Below are positions 1 through 52,038 of a stretch of DNA of 64,000 bases, piece by piece; position 1 is the stretch's first letter; every line of letters starts with the position of its first letter. The notes under the pieces were generated by a model. The model saw only the letters and a program-made list of their open reading frames with translations. It had not been told where the DNA came from and searched no databases. Location: assembly GCA_003971905.1 (NCBI GenBank), contig RSEE01000044.1, positions 248,001 through 312,000 on the forward strand. Direction: 5' to 3'. A program made the translations under genes and the position numbers. Source of the DNA: Moniliella sp. 'wahieum' (lineage: Eukaryota).

Positions 1-2491
1 AAAGGATAACGGAGCGGGTTCTCTGCCAGCAGGGATTGAACTGGAGGTACAGTGGAGCTTGTGGCTGTTGCGGCGAGAAGAGACAGGGAATGGTGGAAGA
101 CTGAGAAGGAACTTCTGAATTATATATACTGGTCCGGTTTCATCCGAGTCCGACAGCGCAATACAGGATGAAAACGTTGCATTGAGCGTAAGCAGTATCC
201 CGACGGGGGCGAAAGTGGGCGTCGCCTCTTCTCATATTCCCAATGAGGAAGAAGCCAGTTGAACCTACACGATGTGTGGTGAGAGGCAAGAACAAAAGGA
301 GGCCGGGAAAACTCAATGTAATGTATAGTGTGAAGGGCCTCTATAGAAGCAGAGACCTGCAATGGCGACGGCAGGTGGTATAGGCTTACGCCCCATATAC
401 CACACACCCCTTAACGGAAGAGAGCCAACGATCCCGAAAGCAGGCCCAGATATACACGTGTGAACTTCGAACGCCAACAAAAGAAGGCAAAACAGGGTAT
501 ACAAAACCCGTGACATATGTCTGCAATTGGAAGGTCCCACAACACAAGGAAGTCATCATGGCCTCTTCTTGGCCTGCCATGTAAAAATGTACCGCGGTTT
601 TTTGCCTTTGCGGGTGCATGAACGAGATAAACTGTTGGTCCTTTATACTCCGGTTTGTACCTTTGGACCACCATCGTACCTCGATGAGGAGACCTCATCG
701 ACCATTAGCCTCATCCCTCTTCCTCCATTTGTTTGCCCTTCCGCAGCCTGGGACAGTTCAGACAGCCACACCGTAGTCGCCACCACCTCCCCTCGAGGAG
801 AGCAATTATTACCCATTCCATCGAGGATGGTCAATGCGTGAGAAACAACCAACATGCTCTTTGAGCTAGACAGGCACGCGGCTCAGTGTTGAGCCACGGG
901 GTTGTGCAATGGCTCGTGCTTCTGGCCAAGGTCTTTTATGAAGGTCTTTTCAGATCCTATTCAGGCCTAGGAGCATATCGATATGGGTTCTTCTCCCGTT
1001 TGCCTTCCTTTTGTTCCATCCCGTCCCGACGGTTGCGCGGCCTGGATAACTAATGGCATGCTGAAGCGTCGATGTCCCGGCAGGTGTTTGGTTGGGTTTA
1101 AGACCACCACCATCTCACCATTGCACCAATGGTTCGATTGTGTTACCCTCTATAGCCCCCAGGTCGCGTCGTCGGCGCCCAAATCATGCATGCCTGGATA
1201 GCTGTGACTGGTGGTTGGTTGCTGGGGACCGGGGAGGGGATGCCGATGCCGATGAGGCCATGAGCATGTCACACCCATGCCTGCCATGCAGCCATGGCAT
1301 ACAACGGATGACGTTGTGTTTGTAACGCCTCATTTGTCGCTCGCATGGCCATGTGACATGTCAGTCGGATTCCATGCGTTACGCGCATGCGTTACGCGTT
1401 ACGCGTTACGTTATACGTGGTTTTGCGACTTGCTTGCCAGAGTAACTAGCACTAGCAACCAGTAGCACTGGAGCAAGTAGGTACTCAGCACGCGCTCAGC
1501 CGCGCGCGACTCGTGACACGTGACTAGTGACTTGTCACAGTGACTAGTGGCTGACTCGTGACTTGGCGACTAGTACAGCACAGCGCTCGCATGCACAACT
1601 TGCCAGCTAGTTACTAGTCCCTGGCGCTGAGCGCGCTGAGCCGGAGCAGGCCTTCAAGAATGATTAATGACCGGTGATTAATGATTAATGATTAGTGGCC
1701 GCCTCCGGTCTCCATGCCTGTTGCATCGGTCGTGTGTTCGATCAGAAACCGGCTTCGCTTGGGTTGGTGGGGGCTGGTGGGGGTCGATGCCGTCGAAGCG
1801 CGTCGAAGACGCAGAGAAAAAGAAGCCCATCCCGACATCTGCCACACGCGTGACCTCGTCACCACGTCATCAATCAATTCACAACGTCACGCGTCACGCG
1901 TCACCGGTCACATGTCAGGCCGTCAGACTCGGGCCGAAGTGCGGCAGCGTGGCTCTTTTCCGCCTCAGCTGCACTATGCCCACATGCCGCGTAGCACAGC
2001 CTCCCTATTGCGCCGAGCGCCTGGCCGTTCCTGCATCCTGCCGCCCGCTGCCGCATCTGGCGCACCGCACTGCCTCACAGCCACACACAGCCTAGATTGA
2101 TGCATGATGCATGATGATCGATGGCCGATTTTCCTGGCCAGTCCAGCCCAGCGGCCCAGCCCCCACCACGCGCCACGCCGCCTCCCCTGGCAGCACGCCT
2201 GCGTGATGAATATTGAATGGTGGTGGAGATGGGTGATCGAGTGGTTATGATTAGTGATCGATGCCGACGATGACGTACATGGTGCAGACGCGTGGCAAGG
2301 CACACTGGGTGGTGGTGGCGCGGGACGTGTGTGACGCGTGTCATGTGACATGTGACAGGTGGTGCCGAAGCTGCCGGGTGCCCAGCAGTGCGCAGCGCCC
2401 TGCGCACAGCACCTGTAGCACGGACCATGTCTGCGCGTGCGCCCTTCTTCTTCGTTCCCACCCGCCTTCTTCTCCGGCGGGACGAGGTGCT

Positions 2492-2594: not shown

Positions 2595-3846
2595 ATGGGC
2601 CTCTTTGACCAAGTGCGTTCCTTGCCCCCCCCCTCTCCCCCGCGCGCTCGTCCAATCCTAACCCGCTGCCCAAATAGGCTAAGGACTTCGCTCTGAACCA
2701 GGCTGAAAACATGGCCGCCCAAAAGCTGGGTGTTGACCCTAGCACCTTTGGTGGCAACAGCAACAACAGCTCTTACGGGAACAGCAGCAGCAACAACAAC
2801 TCCAGCTCCTACGGCAACAACAACTCTGACTCGTACGGCAGCAACAACAACAACTCTGACGCGTACGGCAGCAACAACAACAACTCCAGCTCCTACGGGA
2901 ACAACAACTCTGACTCGTACGGTAACAACAACAACTCGGACTCGTACGGCAACAACAACTCCAGCTCCTACGGGAACAACAACTCTGACTCGTACGGTAA
3001 CAACAACAACTCGGACTCGTACGGCAGTAACAACAACACTCGTACGGCTCCTCCAACGACAACTCTGGTCGCAAGCACCACAAGAAGGACGATGACAACT
3101 CGTACGGCAACAACAACTCCTCGTCCTTCGGCAACGACAACTCCTACGGGAACAGTAACAACAACAGCTCGTCGTTTGGCAACAACGACAACTCGTACGG
3201 CAACAACAACTCTGACTCGTATGGCAACAACGACAACTCGTACGGCAACAACAACTCTGACTCGTACGGCAACAGCAACAACAACTCCTACGGCAACAAT
3301 AACTCTGACTCGTACGGCAGCGGCAACAACAACTCTGACTCGTACGGCAGCAGCAACAACAACAACAACAACTCCTACGGCTCCAACTCGGACTCGTTTG
3401 GTGGCAACAACAACAACAACTACGGCTCCTCTGACAATGATGACTCGGGCCGCAAACACCACCACCACAAGAAGGACGATGACAACTCGTACGGCGGCAA
3501 CAACAACTCGTACGGCGGCAACGACTCGTACGGCGGCAACGACTCGTACGGCAACAACAACAACTCGAGCTCGTACGGAAACTCCAACTCCGATTCGTAC
3601 GGCAACAACAACAACAGCAACTCGTACGGGAACAACAACTCGGATTCGTACGGGAGCAAGAACTCCGATTCGTACGGGAACAACAACAACTCGTACGGCA
3701 ACTCCAACTCGGACTCGTACGGCAACAACAACTCGTACGGCAACTCCAACTCCGACTCGTACGGCAACAACAACAGCTCGTACGGCAACTCCAACTCTGA
3801 CTCGTACGGGAACAACAACAACAACTCGTACGGCAACGACTTTTAA
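2595..3846 (+). CDS. Asn/Ser/Gly/Tyr/Asp-rich low-complexity repeat protein (SYG-N repeats)
   Basis: ATG 2595 (MGLFDQ), intron 2613-2677 (GTGCGT..CCTAAC..TAG), exon 2 in frame with ATG 2711. About 40 [S/A][Y/F]G motifs separated by N-runs. An apparent 1-nt deletion near 3038 throws the ORF track into the Thr-rich frame; the true frame ends SYGNDF-TAA at 3846. Confidence 0.85.
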
Positions 3847-5813: not shown

Positions 5814-6988
<1,175 letters not shown>

Positions 6989-9900
6989 GAGTATGGGTGG
7001 GTATGGTATGGGGGGGGGGAGAGTGCAAAGGTGAACACGAAAGCAGAAGAAGTTGGGTGCAACAAGGTAAAGTCGTTGGGCTGGTGGGCCGCGTTTTATG
7101 CGAGTACTAACTGGCCACTGGCTGCTATTGGAGGTGCCAACTCATCAGGCCGATGCTACATGCTATAGCCTCAGCCTCAGCGCCTCAGCCCCCTCGGGCA
7201 AGAGCCCGAGCGCCTGAGCGTAGGTCACCAGTCAGCTGACCCCGCTGAGAACCAGGCACGCAGTGCGGAGCTCGAGGGACGTGGCGTGGTATGGCGGGTG
7301 TGATCGGTGAGGGCGTGACGTGAAGTGATTAATCCCGATTACCTCGATGATCGATGAGATCGATGATCGATGACCGGCCACAAGTGGCCGACCCAACTCC
7401 CAGCAAAGGAATACCGCTGAACAAGTACTGAACGTTGAACATTGAACGGCTATAACGGCCGTAGGGGGTGTTCTGACCCGAAATCACAATTCGCATCACG
7501 CGGGGCTTGGCTGGTCTGGGCGGCTGCGAGGCTCGATGCCCGCGGTCGCATTAAACCTTGAACCGACGGGAGGGGCAGAATAGGACTGGTGTTCTGGTTG
7601 AACAATGTGGTTATACCGTTTGCGCGACGCTTACGTCCGGCCCACCGATGCGCCACTCAAGGTGGAACGGAGATAAAGAATGCTCCACTTACATACGCGA
7701 TCACGCGTTACATGCACACATCATGTTGCTCCACTCGTCCTCAGTTATTCATGCACCGATCTCCCTGAGCGCCTGAGCGCCTGAGCGCCTGAGCGCCGAG
7801 CACCTGAGGCTCCGGATTCACCAGCTCGCGTCCCCTATCATTGGTGCCCCTTCGACAAGCAAAAGGGCCGCGGCGGTTCATGTCGCAACTGCTCATATCG
7901 CCGCCGGGGCATTGCAACATTGCACACTGAACATTTGACAGAGCTGCCGGGTCGTCACGCACGACGGTGTGAGATACTCTTGCGGCGCCCCCACCAGCAG
8001 TCGCCAGCATTCCTCTGCGCCCCGCGGCCCATCCACAGCCCCATCGGTCGTCCCGCGTCACCGCGTCACCCCCTTTCCGCCCGATGCGGTCATCCTCCCC
8101 TGGCCACACCCCTTCTCCCGAGCGATGCGCTGAGCCATGCAGAGCCCCTCCTTCCCGCCGCGTCCCGGCTCCGACGGGGCCAGAGCCACTGAGCAAGGGC
8201 GAACGCCTCTGGATCGCGCGCTGCTGTTGCGACGTTGCTCTCTCTACCGCTGCGGCAGTCTTGATTTCGTCTGACGTGTGATTCTGTCCTGATTTGGGAA
8301 GGGGGGGGAGTGGTTACCGGTTACCGGCCCATGGATTCTTTCCACCGCAGTCTCCTCGTGCGCCTTGGACCGCGCCGCGGACTGCCGTTCAACGTGCACC
8401 TTGGTGGCCGTTTGCTTGCGTTTCGGCTTTCGGCAGCGACCGCTGTTTGGTGTTGGAGGAATTGCCGCTCAATTCGCACCTGTTCAGTTACCATCCTCCG
8501 GCCCTGCTAGCCAGCCACGTGCCATGAAAGTGACCCCCAAGGTTCCGTGCGAACCAGGGAACATGTTCGGGGAGCTTGCGATGCCGTGAGTGCATGTCGT
8601 TTCTTGGGCCATGCTTGGCCAATCTCGTCTTGCTGTGCGGGCTTTCTGAGATGGAGGGGGATAGAGGGGAACGCGTAGCTGGCATTGTTACTCTTTCATT
8701 ACCACACAGAGGGCCATCGAGCCTACGATCGGCTTGGGTGTTGTAAGGTCCCCCTCGATGATGGTCCGCTGTTCCTCCACCGTTCCTCCGCTGTCCTTCA
8801 TCACGCGACGCACAGTATCACCAGCGAATCCTCCATTGCCGTCCTCACCCCAGAGGTCCCAGCAAGCTTGCACAGATTCCACCCTGTGGGAAACAGAAGA
8901 TGTGGGGGCAAGGTAGACGATGTGCTGGGCGAGAGTGACGCGTTCATCTTTATGAAGGTTCGACGAGGCCGACGGGAGACAAAACCCCCTTGGGTAGGAA
9001 GGACGATTCGCATGGAAGGATTCTCGCTTGGGACTTTACGAGTACGTTGCGCCCCAAGCGCACTACGGGCCAACGGGCCAATGATTACATCTTACTCCAC
9101 TGTTGTTGCCCCCACGGACGCGTACATTGCGAACGCTTTACGATACAGAGCCAGCACTGTAGGAAGATGTGGGAGGATCTGCAGGTGCTACTGTAGAAGA
9201 ACTTTAACGGAGCCGACGGTTGTATTGTGGTTGATGATTGATGAGGAAGAAGCAAGGTTCAACTGTACACTTGGATTTCCTCGGTGGCAAGAAACGGTCA
9301 AAATAGGTAGCCTGTGCGGGCTACATCCGGTTTGGGAGCGAATGGCGGGCGCCAGAGCGGCCTGACTTGCTATCGGCTCCTCTGACGGTTTCCTAAACGG
9401 GTTTGGCGCCAACAAGGACAACATGCCGGATGCGCAGGTCGGTTTATATTAGGCGCACTGCTGTTTCGTTGTCCCACCCTTTAGCTCTGGGAATGAGATA
9501 TGACTACAGTACAGCTTCACCGTAGTGGAGCCCACACCGCCAATAGTAGGCTGAGGGCCCCACGTCAGTACCCTCCACGCTTGCATACTACAGAAAAATG
9601 AACAACTAACCGTCGGCTCGCCGCAAACACCCTCCTTTTGGCTTACTTTTTTGTTCACCATCCCCCCACCTGGTAGTACATAGTAGGGGCGCACCCTCGT
9701 GTCCAAGTCCGCAAGCATACGATTGATGATGTACAATAATCAACAGAACCAACATTCTGCTCTTTGCTGCTCAAGAGCGCGGCTGGGGAAGGGTACAGGT
9801 AAAGAACAAAGTTTGAGAAGACAGGAACAGAGTCGCAACATAGACATATACAAGAGAGAGGCCACACACACCAGAGTCATTGATCACGTTGACCAACGTA

Positions 9901-45700: not shown

Positions 45701-46798
45701 GAGGAGGGAGGCAGAGGCTGGTTGGTGACTGGAGGGCGGGAAATGCGTGGCGGTCACGCGTCAACCCGACGTGGAAGCGTGAAGCGCTCGGCAGGCGGAG
45801 TGAGCTGTCCGTGCGCACAGCGGCGCCATGCGAGGGGATGCGCCGGACAGGTGATTGTGATGCGTGAGACGCAGGCGATGGATGAGATCGAGCAGACCCT
45901 GAGATCTGCGATCTGAGACCGCCTGACATCTGAGATCCCGCACAGGCAGGCAGTGTGGCATGGTGGACGTGTGATGCATGTGATGCCCGCCGATGGAACT
46001 TTGGCATGGCAGGTCGGTGGTGTCGATGATGGTCCACCGTCGATGGGCGAGCCTACAAGGAGCGGTGCGGGGGGGGGCATGGCATGGAACGTGCGACCGA
46101 GTAGGCAGGGCGATTGAATCGGCGGCCCGATTCGGCGGGCGTGTCCGCCTCTTGGCTGGCTCCGGGTGGATATAGGGGGTGTTGGATCGGGTCGATGGGT
46201 CGATGGGGCTGTGCGTAGACCGCCGTGTGCTCCGCGCCACGCCGACTGTCTCTAGCGTGGCGCCCCCCAGAACACGTGTGGTTCGTATGGCCCATGGGCT
46301 CGTGAGGCCCACGGCAGCCCCGGCGGTGGTCGGCTCTCCTGGTTGTCATCCATATCCACTACCCAACTGCTCCCCGTTTTTGTCTCTGTCTCGGGTGCAT
46401 AACTAGACCGTTTGCTAGGGTGGAGGCATGTGTGGTCCCCGGCTCAGGCGCAGTCGGGAGCTAGTCACTGCCAGGTCACCGGCGAGCCTCAGCGCCTCGA
46501 CCTCGGCCTCGGCCTCTTTTATAACGCCACTGGGGTACTATGTTCGTACTTACTTGGAGCTACGAGTTCTGTAACGCAGGGTGGCGGCTATGTTGCCGTT
46601 ACCCTGGTGGCTGCTGTTGCATCTTCCATCTTGCCATCGCACCGACTCACCACGTCATGACGCCACGAGGTTGGGCTCGGGACAAGCGAAGCCCGTCCTC
46701 TTTTAAAATAGCGCGCATTGGAGAAGCTTATTATAATGTGCCAACACGCAAGCGTTGAATCCACGATGCTTCTTCCTCTTCTCTTCGACTCTCTTCCG

Positions 46799-47007
46799 TG
46801 TTGACCACCAGTGGTCTAGAGCCCATCGGCCTTCAGTGACACGTGGCCCGATCACACAGTGCACCGGGGCAGTGAGTTCCGACCCTTCCACGGGTTTCCA
46901 CTGGCCTCCAGGCCAGGAGCCTATCAAGGCCATAGCTCTAGCTCTCCTTAGCTCTTGAATGCCATCTCCATCGACCATCGCCAGCATCGCTAGCTAGGCC
47001 TGTGACA
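46799..47007 (+). repeat. 5' LTR (209 bp)
   Basis: Matches the 3' LTR except for three 1-nt deletions in short homopolymers. Confidence 0.97.
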
Positions 47008-47153
47008 GAGCTACAATCTGAAGCACCCCACTGGCGCAAAGGATCAATACTCAGCACCACCATCGCGCCACCGTCACCCACACACCACCCCAACGCCACC
47101 ATCGGCACCACACCAACCAATTCAAAAAAAAAACAAAGGAAAAATCAGCCACC

Positions 47154-48499
47154 ATGCCCCCCGAACTGGAAGAAAACACCCCTCCTCCCGAAGTCTCTGT
47201 CATCGAAGAGGCGCAGGACATCGACGAACGACCACCACCCCTGTCTCCGACCCGACCTGGCAACAGGCCCTCACCGACGTCAGAGACAACCTCCTCGCAA
47301 GCACCCGCGCGTTCAAGCCCACAGCGCTGACAATCTCCGCTCCACATGCCGCTCGTTCGCTACGGATGCACCACGGCGGCGTATGGACCGAAGAGCAAGA
47401 AAACCCGGGCGGAAAGGAAATTGGATCTACACGCTCACCCTCGCGTTGGAGAAATATGTATTGGCCGTTGAATTCACGAAGCCGCAAAACACCCGTGAGG
47501 CCCTTGCATCCGCGAGTGAGCATGGCCGAGCTTCGCCACGCTGAGAAACGCGCGTCAAAAGAGATCGAGCGTACCAACGCGACGCGCAAGGACGCCTTCC
47601 GCGACCCCACCGAATTGCTCTGGGAGCCCTCCATCCTCAACATCCTGGACCGCATCCCCCCGCCGCGAAGGACATCGTTCGCTCCGGTCCATCGTCCCAC
47701 ACTACGACTCGTCCCTCGATCTACGCCTCCAGAACCTTCTGTGGTCCCACCTCCGAACGACTTCAATCTGCCATTTTGCACAGGACAACGTTGACACGTC
47801 GCTGACTTGCTCCGTGCCCTGCGAACAAATACGGTACGGTCGACTGCAACGTATCATGAATTGTCCATCGCTTTCACCACTGCTACCAAAACCGGCGCAG
47901 CGGGAGCGCGTTCCTATCTGAAATGGGGACGCTCCGCAACCGGATCAGCGCAACCACACCGTGTCGGACGAGCAATTCCGCCGTATCCTCGTCGGGGCCC
48001 TCCGCGACCTGGTGACGTCGCCGCCTAGAAGCACATGACTCTGGCGGAGACAATGCAAGACGTTGGAGAGAATCCCAGCGACCCCGAGTACAGAATTCCG
48101 TACCGGGCCGTCACCCCGGACCGCCAACTCGGGCGCGGCAAACACGACAGCGCGGGATCCCAGCAGCATAGCGGGGGTCCTCCTGCCGGTGCATCTCCCC
48201 GTAGCGGGGTCTCTTGCGAGGAAAGCCGTCCGGCCACACCGGGGTTCCTTCGAACAACAAATGGCACCGCAACAGCTCCGCGCGAGCGCACATTGCCACC
48301 GAAGACGACGTTCTCGAAGGGGAGACCTGTCTGTGGACCTTGCCCTATCTGACAAATAGGAACTCGCGGGCAACCAGGACATCCAGTCTCGTCACGACTC
48401 GGGCGCGGATCCTAGCATTGGAAGGATCTCAGGGTATTCAAAAACCCTCAAGCCCAGCAACCGCTCAATCGAAATCGCTGATGGAAACTATTAAAGCCA
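47154..48499 (+). CDS. copia gag and protease region (frameshifted in this consensus)
   Basis: GCCACCATG at 47154; protein-like fragments; aspartic-protease DSGA motif at 48396-48407. Confidence 0.7.
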
Positions 48500-51400
48500 G
48501 TGGGCGGAACATGTAGCATCGGTATCAAGTGTACCGACGGCAAATGTATCCATGTTAGACTACCCGGCAGTCTATACGTCCCCGGCATAGCAAGCAATCT
48601 CACGAGCGTAGCGCAAATAAGTGACGCAGGCCACGCATCCTGGTTCGCCCCCCACCGAAAAGGTATCTGGTTAAATGACAAGCATGGCAAATATCACCAA
48701 ATCGCGGATTCCTCATACAAGCTGAACATCGTCCCGAAACCGACACCCACAAACGAACACGCGGCCAAAGCTGCCGTCGCCACCCAACACACCGCAGCCA
48801 ACACCATCGAGCACGTCATGTACGTTCACCAACAGTACAACCACGCCGCGCTAGACCTACTCCCGACACTAACCGCCAACGCGCGAGCGAGCCTCCGCGT
48901 CAGCCCTGCCCAAATCCGACGCATCCGCCCCTTCTGGCATTGTCCCACCTGCACAAAAGCTCTGGCCAAAGCGCCCAGCCACCCTTCGCGCCACGGCCGC
49001 CGCATTTCGGAACGTCCTTTCGAAGTACTGCACGCCGACGTAGTCGACCTCCCTCGCATCACTGGCATGGGACATGGATACGCCCTGGTCGCGGTTGATG
49101 ACTGGAGCCGTTACACCTTCGCTGTTCCCCTAAAGACGAAAGGACAAGCCACGGCGGAGCTGAAAAAACTCATCACCCGCGAGCAACGCATCGGAAAGGA
49201 CCGTCTGCTTCGCATCTTGAAGACAGACAATGCCCCCGAGCTCACCAGCGCACTCCGTCCGTTCCTTGAATCCGAAGGTATCACGACGGAAACCACCATA
49301 CCAGGCCAAAGTCAATCAAATGGGGTGGCCGAGCGAGCCATCCAGGCAATCACCACACGCGCGCGCCAACTCATCATCGCCTCGGGCCTCCCGACATCAA
49401 ACTGGTGGCAGGATGCCTTGCTGGCAGGGTGCTGGACGCACAACCTCATGCCACCGACATCTCCACGCCAGGGCACACAATCTCGGGCTGAGCTGTACAA
49501 GGGGTCACCCCCACCGCTGCCAATGCACGCCTTCGGATCCTTGGCGTACCTTCACCTGGCCCAGGACCAACGTGACCATAAGCTCAGTCCGCGGGCTGTC
49601 GAAGCCATGCTCGTCGGGTACGACGCAGGTCGAGGTACAAAGGGTTGGCGCTGGGCTGTGTACGACCCGTCCATGGGCACGTTCCGATCCCAATGGGCAA
49701 AACCATACAAGTGGACCCAGCGCCAATACCACGAGGTTTTCCCCGACCGCTTTCCGCCTGACGTATCTCGCTTCCCCGCTCAACCCCTGCCTGACAGAAC
49801 TATGACTGACACTGAAACCAAAAAGGGAGAAGAAAAAATGAACAAAATTGAAGTTGCAAATCCCAACACACCACCGAGAATCAACACTGATACTGACGCG
49901 ACCATCGCAAGACAAAACGACACCCATCCAACCACCCCCACCACCAGACGGTACCCCGCCCGGACCCACCAGCGCCGTTTTGACCTTGACTGGGCACAGC
50001 TCCCCGTAGCGGACGACCCTCATGATGGTGACTTCCACGCACACGCTGCCGCGCTGCCTCCGGTTCCCCTCCCTGACGGTAGTCGTAGTCCTGCGATCGG
50101 CCTACGCTTCCCACTGCCCGACACTGCCCTGCCCGCGTACAGCGACGGTCTCCATCCGCCTGAATACAAGGCGATGATCGCCCTTAGCGAGCCAGGGCCG
50201 CACGAGCGCATCCAGCTCACCAAGGACGGAGTACCTGTTGCACCCAAGACAATGAAGGGCCTCCAATCACACCCCTCATTCGAACCAGTGCTGGAGGCGA
50301 TGCGCACGGAAATCGACACCCTAGCCCGCTACGGCACATTCGAAGTCGTCACGCCCCCTCCAGACGCGCAGCTGCTGATTGGTCTATGGCGCATCAACAC
50401 CAAAACGGACGCGGACGGAAATTTCCTACGCTACCGAGCCCGTCTCGTTGCCGGGGGCCACCAGCAGGATGCTGACACATGGGGACAAACATTCGCCCCT
50501 GCCGTGCGCACTCCTGCCATCCTCAGCCTTATCGCCCTTGCTGGAAAGTTCGGCCTCCACCTCTTCACTGCTGATGTGCACTCTGCCTATTTGAACGCTC
50601 CCCTCACGGAAAAAGTGTACCTCCGCCCACCCCCATTCTTTCCCGAGGAAAAAGGCAAGGTCTGGCGTCTCCGGAAAAGCCTATATGGCCTCCACCAATC
50701 CGGCGCAAACTGGGCGGTATTCATCCGTGACTTGCTCCGCGGAGACATGGGTTTTGTACAATCTCTGGCTGAGCCGTGCTTGTTCATCCGACCCCGTAAA
50801 GGCGACACGGTCCTCCTTGCCGTGCACACCGACGATCTTCTCATCGCCTGCACGTCTCACGCACGCTACGATTCCTTCCTCACTGAGATCAACACCCATA
50901 TCGAGGTGCGGGGAAACGGCCCCCTACACTACCATCTTGGCTGCCAGTACGACACCATAAACGGGAAACTGTACCTTAGCCAGCCAAAATTCATTGAGGA
51001 ATCCATTGCCAAACATGAGGTTCCGCCACCCCTGGTTATGGGCCTCCCCCACCCCAGCAAGATGATCCCCGCGCGCACCGACCCCGAACCGCCCGCACTG
51101 CCCGCCGAGAGACGCGACTATCAAGCCAAAGTAGGATCTGGGCTGTGGGCTGCCCGCATGTGCCGCCCTGATGCGCTGTTCGGCATCTCAGCTCTAAGCC
51201 GAGCAACTGCCGATCCCTCCAAGGCCCACCGCGCTGCGGCAACAAACTTCCTCCGCTACCTCTACGGTACCAAGGGCTACGGTCTCCGACTAACACCCGA
51301 GCCTGACGCACCCGCTCTCGCGCTATACACGGATGCCGACCTGGCTGGAGACCCTGACCAATGGCGTTCCACGTCGGGATGCCTGCTTTTCGTCTACGGG

Positions 51401-51832
51401 GTTCCAGTGTCCTGGAGGAGCGTGCGTCAACCCAAGAGCGTCACCAACACTGCTGCGGCCGAATATACGGCGGGATATGAGGGCCTCATTGATGCGAACT
51501 ACGTTAAAAACATCTTACTGGAGCTCGGTGCCATCACCTCAGACGAGCCCATACACTGGTACTGCGACAACATGGCGGCACTTGCCTTGGCCGAAAAAGT
51601 GGGCAGCACGGGCAAACTACGTGAGCTGAACATCCGGTACCACAACGTACGCCAGCATGTCGACTCGGGCGAAGTCAAAATCGCGCACATTGCTGGAAAC
51701 GAGAACCCGGCCGACATCCTCACCAAACCAGCCACTAAGGTCTCACTCCTGGCCAACTTGCCTCGCCTCAAGCTTGAGGACGTTACAACCTTCCATCGTG
51801 CCACTGAGACCTCTGGCCAGCGGGGGTGTTGA
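48500..51832 (+). CDS. pol: copia pol: integrase, reverse transcriptase (RVT_2), RNase H
   Basis: Uninterrupted 1110-codon ORF: H..H..CPTC zinc motif, LHADVV/KTDNA/NGVAER DDE, YRARLVAGG, DVHSAYLN, LYGLHQSG, VHTDD, YTDADLAG, AEY, YCDN, NPADILTK. Confidence 0.97.
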   Translation: MGGTCSIGIKCTDGKCIHVRLPGSLYVPGIASNLTSVAQISDAGHASWFAPHRKGIWLNDKHGKYHQIADSSYKLNIVPKPTPTNEHAAKAAVATQHTAANTIEHVMYVHQQYNHAALDLLPTLTANARASLRVSPAQIRRIRPFWHCPTCTKALAKAPSHPSRHGRRISERPFEVLHADVVDLPRITGMGHGYALVAVDDWSRYTFAVPLKTKGQATAELKKLITREQRIGKDRLLRILKTDNAPELTSALRPFLESEGITTETTIPGQSQSNGVAERAIQAITTRARQLIIASGLPTSNWWQDALLAGCWTHNLMPPTSPRQGTQSRAELYKGSPPPLPMHAFGSLAYLHLAQDQRDHKLSPRAVEAMLVGYDAGRGTKGWRWAVYDPSMGTFRSQWAKPYKWTQRQYHEVFPDRFPPDVSRFPAQPLPDRTMTDTETKKGEEKMNKIEVANPNTPPRINTDTDATIARQNDTHPTTPTTRRYPARTHQRRFDLDWAQLPVADDPHDGDFHAHAAALPPVPLPDGSRSPAIGLRFPLPDTALPAYSDGLHPPEYKAMIALSEPGPHERIQLTKDGVPVAPKTMKGLQSHPSFEPVLEAMRTEIDTLARYGTFEVVTPPPDAQLLIGLWRINTKTDADGNFLRYRARLVAGGHQQDADTWGQTFAPAVRTPAILSLIALAGKFGLHLFTADVHSAYLNAPLTEKVYLRPPPFFPEEKGKVWRLRKSLYGLHQSGANWAVFIRDLLRGDMGFVQSLAEPCLFIRPRKGDTVLLAVHTDDLLIACTSHARYDSFLTEINTHIEVRGNGPLHYHLGCQYDTINGKLYLSQPKFIEESIAKHEVPPPLVMGLPHPSKMIPARTDPEPPALPAERRDYQAKVGSGLWAARMCRPDALFGISALSRATADPSKAHRAAATNFLRYLYGTKGYGLRLTPEPDAPALALYTDADLAGDPDQWRSTSGCLLFVYGVPVSWRSVRQPKSVTNTAAAEYTAGYEGLIDANYVKNILLELGAITSDEPIHWYCDNMAALALAEKVGSTGKLRELNIRYHNVRQHVDSGEVKIAHIAGNENPADILTKPATKVSLLANLPRLKLEDVTTFHRATETSGQRGC

Positions 51833-52038
51833 CCACCAGTGGTCTAGAGCCCATCGGCCTTCAGTGACACGTGGCCCGATCCACACAGTGCACCGGGGCA
51901 GTGAGTTCCGACCCTTCCACGGGTTTCCACTGGCCTCCAGGCCAGGAGCCTATCAAGGCCCATAGCTCTAGCTCTCCTTAGCTCTTGAATGCCATCTCCA
52001 TCGACCATCGCCAGCATCGCTAGCTAGGCCTGTGGACA
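51827..52038 (+). repeat. 3' LTR (212 bp)
   Basis: TGTTGACC..GTGGACA, followed by TSD TTCCG. Confidence 0.97.

Follow-up and report, generated by a model that had tools for sequence, protein, structure and literature searches.

A mixed array of palindromic spacers as one imperfect instance of a genome-wide insertion process in a smut-related fungus

The array of TCA triplets and palindromic four-base spacers at positions 1887-1917 is an imperfect example of a scar process that acts throughout the genome, and it gives no evidence of compensatory selection. When two copies of the region were compared, palindromic spacers were found to be born whole, through single insertions of 7 bp in which the flank is copied, and we regard it as very likely that the spacers arise by insertion. 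The first-pass annotation had proposed that spacer self-complementarity is either selected or mechanistically generated, and it is the second of these that the comparison bore out. The array itself adds little beyond the class to which it belongs, being a hot spot with a partly erased history.

The window, i.e. the whole 64-kb stretch of DNA that was analyzed, corresponds to C44:248001-312000 in an assembly of 69.5 Mb. An importin encoded in the window was closest to proteins of Ustilaginomycotina (49-50%), whereas a flavin oxidoreductase yielded no lineage when searched; a second copy of the region was located on C32. We compared 382 kb of C44, window included, with 380 kb of C32, and 361,675 bases were aligned. 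The two copies differed by 2.9% substitutions and by 3,238 one-base indels, many of the latter being probably assembly errors. One-base errors of this kind are also the probable reason why an old-yellow-enzyme gene (PF00724; window 5814-6988, minus strand) is split over three frames. A 5.2-kb LTR retrotransposon-like insertion at 46798-52037, with TG..CA ends, 209-bp direct repeats that are 99% alike, and a 5-bp duplication, was absent from the second copy and is therefore recent.

The array was present as annotated and reads TCA-CGCG-TCA-CGCG-TCA-CCGG-TCA-CATG-TCA, the TCA triplets starting at 1887, 1894, 1901, 1908, and 1915. Arrays of palindromic spacers were far above chance: the 64-kb window held 47 starts with one palindromic spacer, 10 with two consecutive ones, 3 with three, and 2 with four, against a mean of 2.0 starts with one and zero with at least two in 40 order-2 Markov simulations of 64 kb each. 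The three palindromic spacer types are likewise real, but all four spacers have the form C..G, so that the repeated unit is GTCAC and only the inner dinucleotide varies (GC, GC, CG, AT), which weakens the argument that had been built on three perfect palindromes. Since the array was identical on C32, within an 81-bp identical run from 1884, its own history is not directly readable. With 5.3% of bases differing locally, a 31-mer should be identical approximately once in five, and an identical run of 105 bp was found nearby. One public DNA run, of which a small share was used, gave no coverage of the array from which a third allele could be read, and the mixed 24-mer of the array was absent from metagenome contigs.

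The features in and around the array are listed in the table. The array lies approximately 700 bp upstream of the Asn/Ser-rich repeat gene, which may resemble yeast DDR48. This gene has an intron at 2613-2677, as judged by its GT..AG ends, a frame break near 3040 in the window copy, and many length differences between the two copies; no Pfam family matched its part 2711-3046. The indel at 2207-2218 had noisy flanks and was left out of the clean set described below. At 2346-2360, the second copy carried a 30-bp expansion of a non-palindromic TGA-CCTG unit adjoining TGA-CATG, which means that decayed units also grow by slippage. Upstream, a period-8 pair at 1859-1869 was rejected as an additional scar, as its first spacer base mismatches the flank.

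Features in and near the mixed array, in window coordinates
Feature	Position	Strand	Basis
Mixed period-7 array, five TCA and four palindromic 4-base spacers	1887..1917		Sequence; same in C32 copy
Two CGCG spacers with their left flank CG, matching the left-copy form exactly (xy-TNA-y'x'xy-TNA)	1885..1900		Rule labels B, L
Spacers CCGG and CATG, each 1 base off left-copy rule	1904..1914		Rule labels 0,0
Period-8 extension TCA-GGCC-G-TCA-GA	1915..1927		Sequence; TCA-GGCC-G-TCA itself at 1915-1925
Second mixed array, TGA with TTAA, CCGG, TTAA, TTAA	1661..1691		Second copy two units shorter
Array with CTAG palindromic unit unique to window copy, adjoining non-palindromic spacers	1514..1537		Right-copy insertion
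TGA-ATAT-TGA-AT, 7-bp indel vs second copy (5 duplicated + 2 mirror bases)	2207..2218		Copy comparison
Asn/Ser-rich repeat protein gene (SYGNNNSD-like units)	2595..3846	+	Translation

When direct pairs of trinucleotides were surveyed in 204 kb, a palindromic four-base spacer was found in 109 of 235 TGA/TCA pairs (46%) and in 28 of 51 TTA/TAA pairs (55%), compared with 0-13% of the pairs in the other 30 trinucleotide classes. In 382 kb there were 280 such motifs, among which all 16 palindromes were present. Most of them obeyed a flank rule, according to which the spacer ends with the two bases that precede the first T-N-A (left form) or starts with the two bases that follow the second T-N-A (right form): 237 motifs followed the rule, 35 were one base off, and 8 were two bases off. 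In the fixed sequence, we counted 160 left and 147 right forms; the classes with a full four-base end were 15- to 31-fold above other trinucleotides, and the 8-bp class approximately 30-fold. The central base of T-N-A was repeated and not complemented (280 the same versus 38 flipped). In 128 isolated motifs, T-N-A alone was fixed and the symmetry of the inner pair was slightly raised (45 of 128 versus a background of 27%); the symmetry of the outer pairs was raised little or not at all, and a longer target consensus was rejected.

The motif loci, 211 in the 382 kb of C44, were unevenly spread, with 5-6 loci in 9 of the 382 1-kb bins and none in 275, which suggests hot regions of open chromatin or local hopping. 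None of the 43 window loci fell in the 9,033 bp of coding DNA, where 6.1 were expected, the coding set consisting of six hand-picked coding-looking stretches, two of which were confirmed as coding. An insertion of 7 bp is a frameshift, and this accounts for the lack of motifs in coding DNA.

The lengths of the indels between the two copies peaked at 7 bp (108, versus 70 at 6 bp and 48 at 8 bp), and 75 of the 108 seven-base gaps passed a cleanliness filter. The results showed that 32 of these 75 consisted of a flank-copying palindromic unit at T-N-A, in which five bases were duplicated and two mirrored the flank. These events show that a site xy-TNA-cd gains seven bases to become either xy-TNA-cd-d'c'-TNA-cd (right copy) or xy-TNA-y'x'-xy-TNA-cd (left copy), and in both cases the spacer is palindromic at birth. 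None of the 75 clean indels had a palindromic spacer that ignored the flank. The other 43 lay outside the T-N-A rule; 35 were unrelated, 5 followed the rule at other trinucleotides, and 3 were plain duplications. Indels that followed the rule at GGA/TCC or CCA centres were seen at 8312 and 2166 in the window, at L036:2222, and at L047:48, so that T-N-A is preferred, not absolute. By side, 22 of the 7-bp indels were left and 10 right, with ties assigned to left.

Most of these events cannot be slippage, since 22 of the 32 occurred at a lone T-N-A, most of them with only 5-6 bases duplicated, whereas units made by slippage would be exact copies of a neighbouring one. Slippage may still lengthen uniform runs. 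The T-N-A model also fitted 9 of 32 clean indels of 8 bp, 5 of 26 of 9 bp, 1 of 11 of 10 bp, and 1 of 43 of 6 bp, and none among those of 4, 5, 11, and 12 bp (110, 51, 13, and 12 indels, respectively). The rarer forms of 8, 9, and 10 bases retain a longer part of the duplication, at most the full seven bases xy-TNA-cd. The five 9-bp rule indels had all of xy-TNA-cd on both sides and two mirror bases, which fixes the length of the duplication at 7.

The direction of change was read from 27 dispersed copies of an 860-bp repeat. All six internal motifs, found in four copies, were missing from most of the other copies and are therefore gains, although in two of the six cases most other copies have CCA, not TCA, at the site. 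A seventh case lay outside the shared part of the repeat and was set aside.

We consider it probable that the array is a pile of repair scars left by a hairpin-forming transposon with a 7-bp target duplication. According to this model, the seven-base duplication would be the target duplication of the transposon, and excision would seal both flanks as hairpins at their very ends. A host nuclease would then cut each hairpin 2 nt beyond its tip to give palindromic 3' overhangs of 4 nt, and joining would either keep one overhang whole (+7) or overlap the two (+8 to +11). Both strands could be ligated without loss, the left form coming from one strand and the right form from the other, and this would explain both the dominance of +7 and the equal numbers of left and right forms. 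The series of indels from 7 to 10 bp agrees with a target duplication of 7 bp and hairpin ends that are opened to 4-nt overhangs. Such a chemistry has precedents: the main product of Artemis is a hairpin opened at +2 with a 4-nt overhang (PMC2175297, accessible part), hAT, Transib, RAG, and MULE enzymes make hairpins on the flanks (PMC5499845, accessible part), and 7-bp target duplications are described for basidiomycete hAT7 and Kyakuja elements, compared with 2-3 bp for EnSpm/Plavaka and fungal CMC/EnSpm elements (PMC12730594 and PMC12810828, accessible parts). The accessible parts of PMC4455052 and PMC6379663 added nothing on footprint shape.

A more far-reaching version, which we offer tentatively and would rather doubt than assert, has an undescribed and very active cutter at work in this lineage. 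It would be a transposase that targets 7 bp of the form NN-TNA-NN and processes the ends in a RAG-like manner, or else a domesticated, element-free nuclease. Lossless ligation of the two strands would produce a heteroduplex and from it left and right scars, repeated hits would build tandem repeats de novo in promoters, and mixed arrays would log the order of the hits.

The scar-writing enzyme remains inferred, as it was not matched to any element found. In approximately 0.97 Mb of the 69.5 Mb, there was no element with a 7-bp T-N-A-centred duplication, and scans of the same sequence for inverted ends with target duplications gave chance-like or array-derived matches only. Large clean-ended insertions between the copies were of LTR type, with 5-bp duplications, or had no inverted ends. 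Two insertions specific to C32, of 589 bp (L069:7725-8315) and 2,019 bp (L060:8578 to L061:598), shared one 35-bp end and differed at the other; they had duplications of approximately 7-10 bp starting with TA and resembled truncated non-LTR elements. Profile searches for hAT, KDZ, MULE, Plavaka, and Harbinger transposases were blank for PF05699, PF14372, PF18758, PF10551, PF18759, and PF13359, and these blanks are weak, given the many 1-bp indels of the assembly and the lack of a positive control for four of them, the two hAT profiles PF05699 and PF14372 included. Tnp2-family transposase-like genes were found at C17:556930-557982 (with C62:282023-283090) and at C34:513259-516872, the former matching the Tnp2 profile above the Pfam cut-off (E 8e-14) and the latter below it (E 2.5e-5). 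Neither the C17 nor the C34 locus had recognizable CAC..GTG terminal repeats or a target duplication. The C17 gene has an unchanged position in the two copies and may have been domesticated. Next to it, a multi-copy match of 440 bp was considered as an element end and rejected, as it is part of the 860-bp repeat, which resembles a solo LTR.

The same insertions might instead be made without a transposon, by a host or domesticated nuclease, or by a replication template switch in which two bases are copied from the other strand before the return to a point five bases upstream; in that case, too, the mixed array would be a pile of one-step insertions. We consider an agent of this kind unlikely, though not negligibly so. 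The indel data show insertion and do not show the agent, no element was found, and the Tnp2-like gene that lacks ends is fixed in both copies. Template switching is, moreover, a published one-step source of apparent compensatory changes (PMC5453318, accessible part). On the other hand, the T-N-A centre is fixed, the two forms are equally common (160 versus 147), and the duplication does not exceed 7 bp, all of which suggests an enzyme of two-fold symmetry that makes staggered cuts. A template switch would also have to return upstream of the point at which it left, and the accessible part of the same paper reports only event types with no such need.

The origin by insertion having been set out, we turn to what happens to the spacers afterwards. 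Among gap-free motif comparisons, with both copies counted, 143 were identical, 32 differed in T-N-A only, 28 showed a single palindrome-breaking change, 7 showed multiple changes with a non-palindromic outcome, and 4 went from palindrome to palindrome; a further 190 comparisons, counted in the same way, contained a gap. Two of the four palindrome-to-palindrome differences were in poorly aligned stretches. As for the two clean ones, the first lies at a site GA-TAA-CA where one copy carries the left form and the other copy the right form, and the second follows a decayed neighbouring spacer; both match independent insertions. The divergence of the spacers (31/716) was the same as that of the flanks (551/12,883), each being 4.3%, and that of the T-N-A bases was 2.8%. 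Thus, after birth, the spacers decay as ordinary DNA at the flanking rate.

These results contradict the claim that spacer self-complementarity is itself selected, since single breaks outnumber clean swaps by 28 to 2 at an unchanged divergence. The paired compensatory changes that the annotation had invoked fare no better: the 28 single and 7 multiple breaks, against 4 palindrome-to-palindrome differences, are the independent substitutions that it had itself named as speaking against its reading, as far as two copies from a single assembly can stand for orthologous arrays of different strains or species.

The view that selection for protein binding or strand structure maintains the palindromic spacers, with mixed arrays as a record of compensatory substitutions, is accordingly very improbable, and for the motif class it is largely refuted. 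It draws on the identity of the array in both copies, on the clustering of the motif loci and their avoidance of coding DNA (0 of 43 versus 6.1 expected), and on the words ACGCGT and TGAC within the array, which correspond to yeast MCB and bZIP half sites. Against these points, an identical 31-mer is expected by chance about once in five, the frameshift caused by +7 explains the coding avoidance, insertion explains both clean swaps, and the spacers diverge as the flanks do, with 190 of the motif comparisons gapped. All 16 palindromes are used, and there is no unusual folding: strand structure as a selected trait was rejected, as no excess stability was found (z -0.5 to -1.1). The array shows no sign of selection, both its folding and its conservation being ordinary. 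It is possible that a transcription factor has co-opted the words of the array.

Mixed arrays, defined by at least two different adjacent palindromes, numbered 14 in 382 kb. Under left and right insertion, 8 of the 14 needed no substitution, 3 needed one, and 3 needed two, compared with two to four changes for every one of the 14 under slippage and substitution. The insertion model is freer in its moves than the slippage model, an advantage only partly offset by a random control in which none of 150 two-spacer arrays could be reduced without substitution. Mixed arrays were caught forming between the copies at L054:5281, L054:5308, and L035:8257. Mixed arrays are the product of left-copy and right-copy events that struck a single site.

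The array at 1887-1917, which had been put forward as the best single piece of evidence, is among the three of the 14 that fit the insertion rule worst, and the second mixed array (1661-1691) also needs 2 changes. Insertion accounts for the array at 1887-1917 with 2 ordinary changes and without breaking any palindrome, versus the 4 paired ones of the annotated model. In the model search, the CGCG units at 1885-1900 could be removed without any substitution, and the second of them may be a re-hit or a slippage copy. The CCGG and CATG spacers would be older hits whose flank was altered later, with 2 substitutions at the outer flank base in the shortest path found. Along this path, left-copy hits would have produced CATG, then CCGG, then CGCG, the outer flank base changing twice between the hits, and an 8-bp right-copy hit would have produced GGCC-G; the extension at 1915-1927 appears to fit the 8-bp right-copy class with one later change. 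We propose this order of hits as the shortest path found, neither unique nor proven, and histories of two steps in which spacers decay and units are then lost by slippage are equally short. Against the model, the rule is not obeyed by two of the four spacers, and it is improbable that a single flank base should have changed twice.

A last alternative, that a GTCAC-NN unit merely slipped and acquired point mutations, with the palindromes of its dinucleotides owed partly to luck and CGCG turning into CATG by CpG decay, is hardly credible. In its favour, the dinucleotide alone varies, self-complementarity is found in 4 of the 16 dinucleotides, the CGCG unit occurs twice without a difference, and CCGG and CATG are off the flank rule. 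However, slippage needs 4 substitutions that all end in a palindrome, versus 2 by insertion, only 3 of 40 sets of the array spacers placed in random flanks reached a cost of 2 (the other 37 being unresolved within the search depth), and births at lone sites are left unexplained.

If the scar model is true, short tandem repeats in this smut-related fungus are born by break repair and not by slippage, the 211 loci in 382 kb are a natural, datable record of hairpin end-joining, and promoters acquire new palindromic words at a high rate. It would also be a warning that differences from one palindrome to another which resemble compensatory evolution can be independent one-step insertions at one site.

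We found no published description of a pattern of palindromic spacers at T-N-A in the literature covered, most subscription journals lying outside it. The nearest match was the '10-bp repeats' of Ustilago maydis, which are likewise numerous small intergenic repeats in a smut fungus and were suggested to be transposon footprints; the accessible part of that paper gives no structure for them and mentions no palindromic spacer, flank rule, or arrays (PMC4081816). The EnSpm/CACTA (CMC) elements of basidiomycetes share with this genome the presence of Tnp2-family genes, but their described members make 2-3-bp duplications, and the Tnp2-like genes found here showed no link to the scars (PMC12730594 and PMC12810828, accessible parts). 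Short-range template switching resembles the present events in making short inverted copies in one step that mimic compensatory substitution, whereas the event order needed here was not observed, and no fixed target or length is named, in the accessible part of PMC5453318. Ac/Ds and the rust hAT7 elements have in common with the scars a target duplication, short palindromic insertions, and a few dominant footprints, the duplication of hAT7 being 7 bp (PMC5873905 and PMC12730594, accessible parts). The palindromes of Ac/Ds are, however, odd-centred, their midpoint being complementary to the base that adjoins the element (PMC5873905, accessible part), whereas the scars are even-centred with no base lost. 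An odd-centred parse of the hAT type was rejected as a misfit here, given the even palindromes and a T-N-A centre that is repeated in 280 cases versus flipped in 38. The P nucleotides of V(D)J joining, which come from RAG/Transib chemistry and opening by Artemis, differ in setting, as the scars are spread over T-N-A sites whose number, by extrapolation from the 280 motifs of the 382 kb, runs into thousands. They also differ in that the scars have a 7-bp duplication and little trimming, whereas most coding joints lose their P nucleotides; what the two share is even-centred palindromic additions made from the end of the flank, with a dominant addition of 2 nt from a 4-nt overhang (PMC2175297 and PMC5499845, accessible parts).
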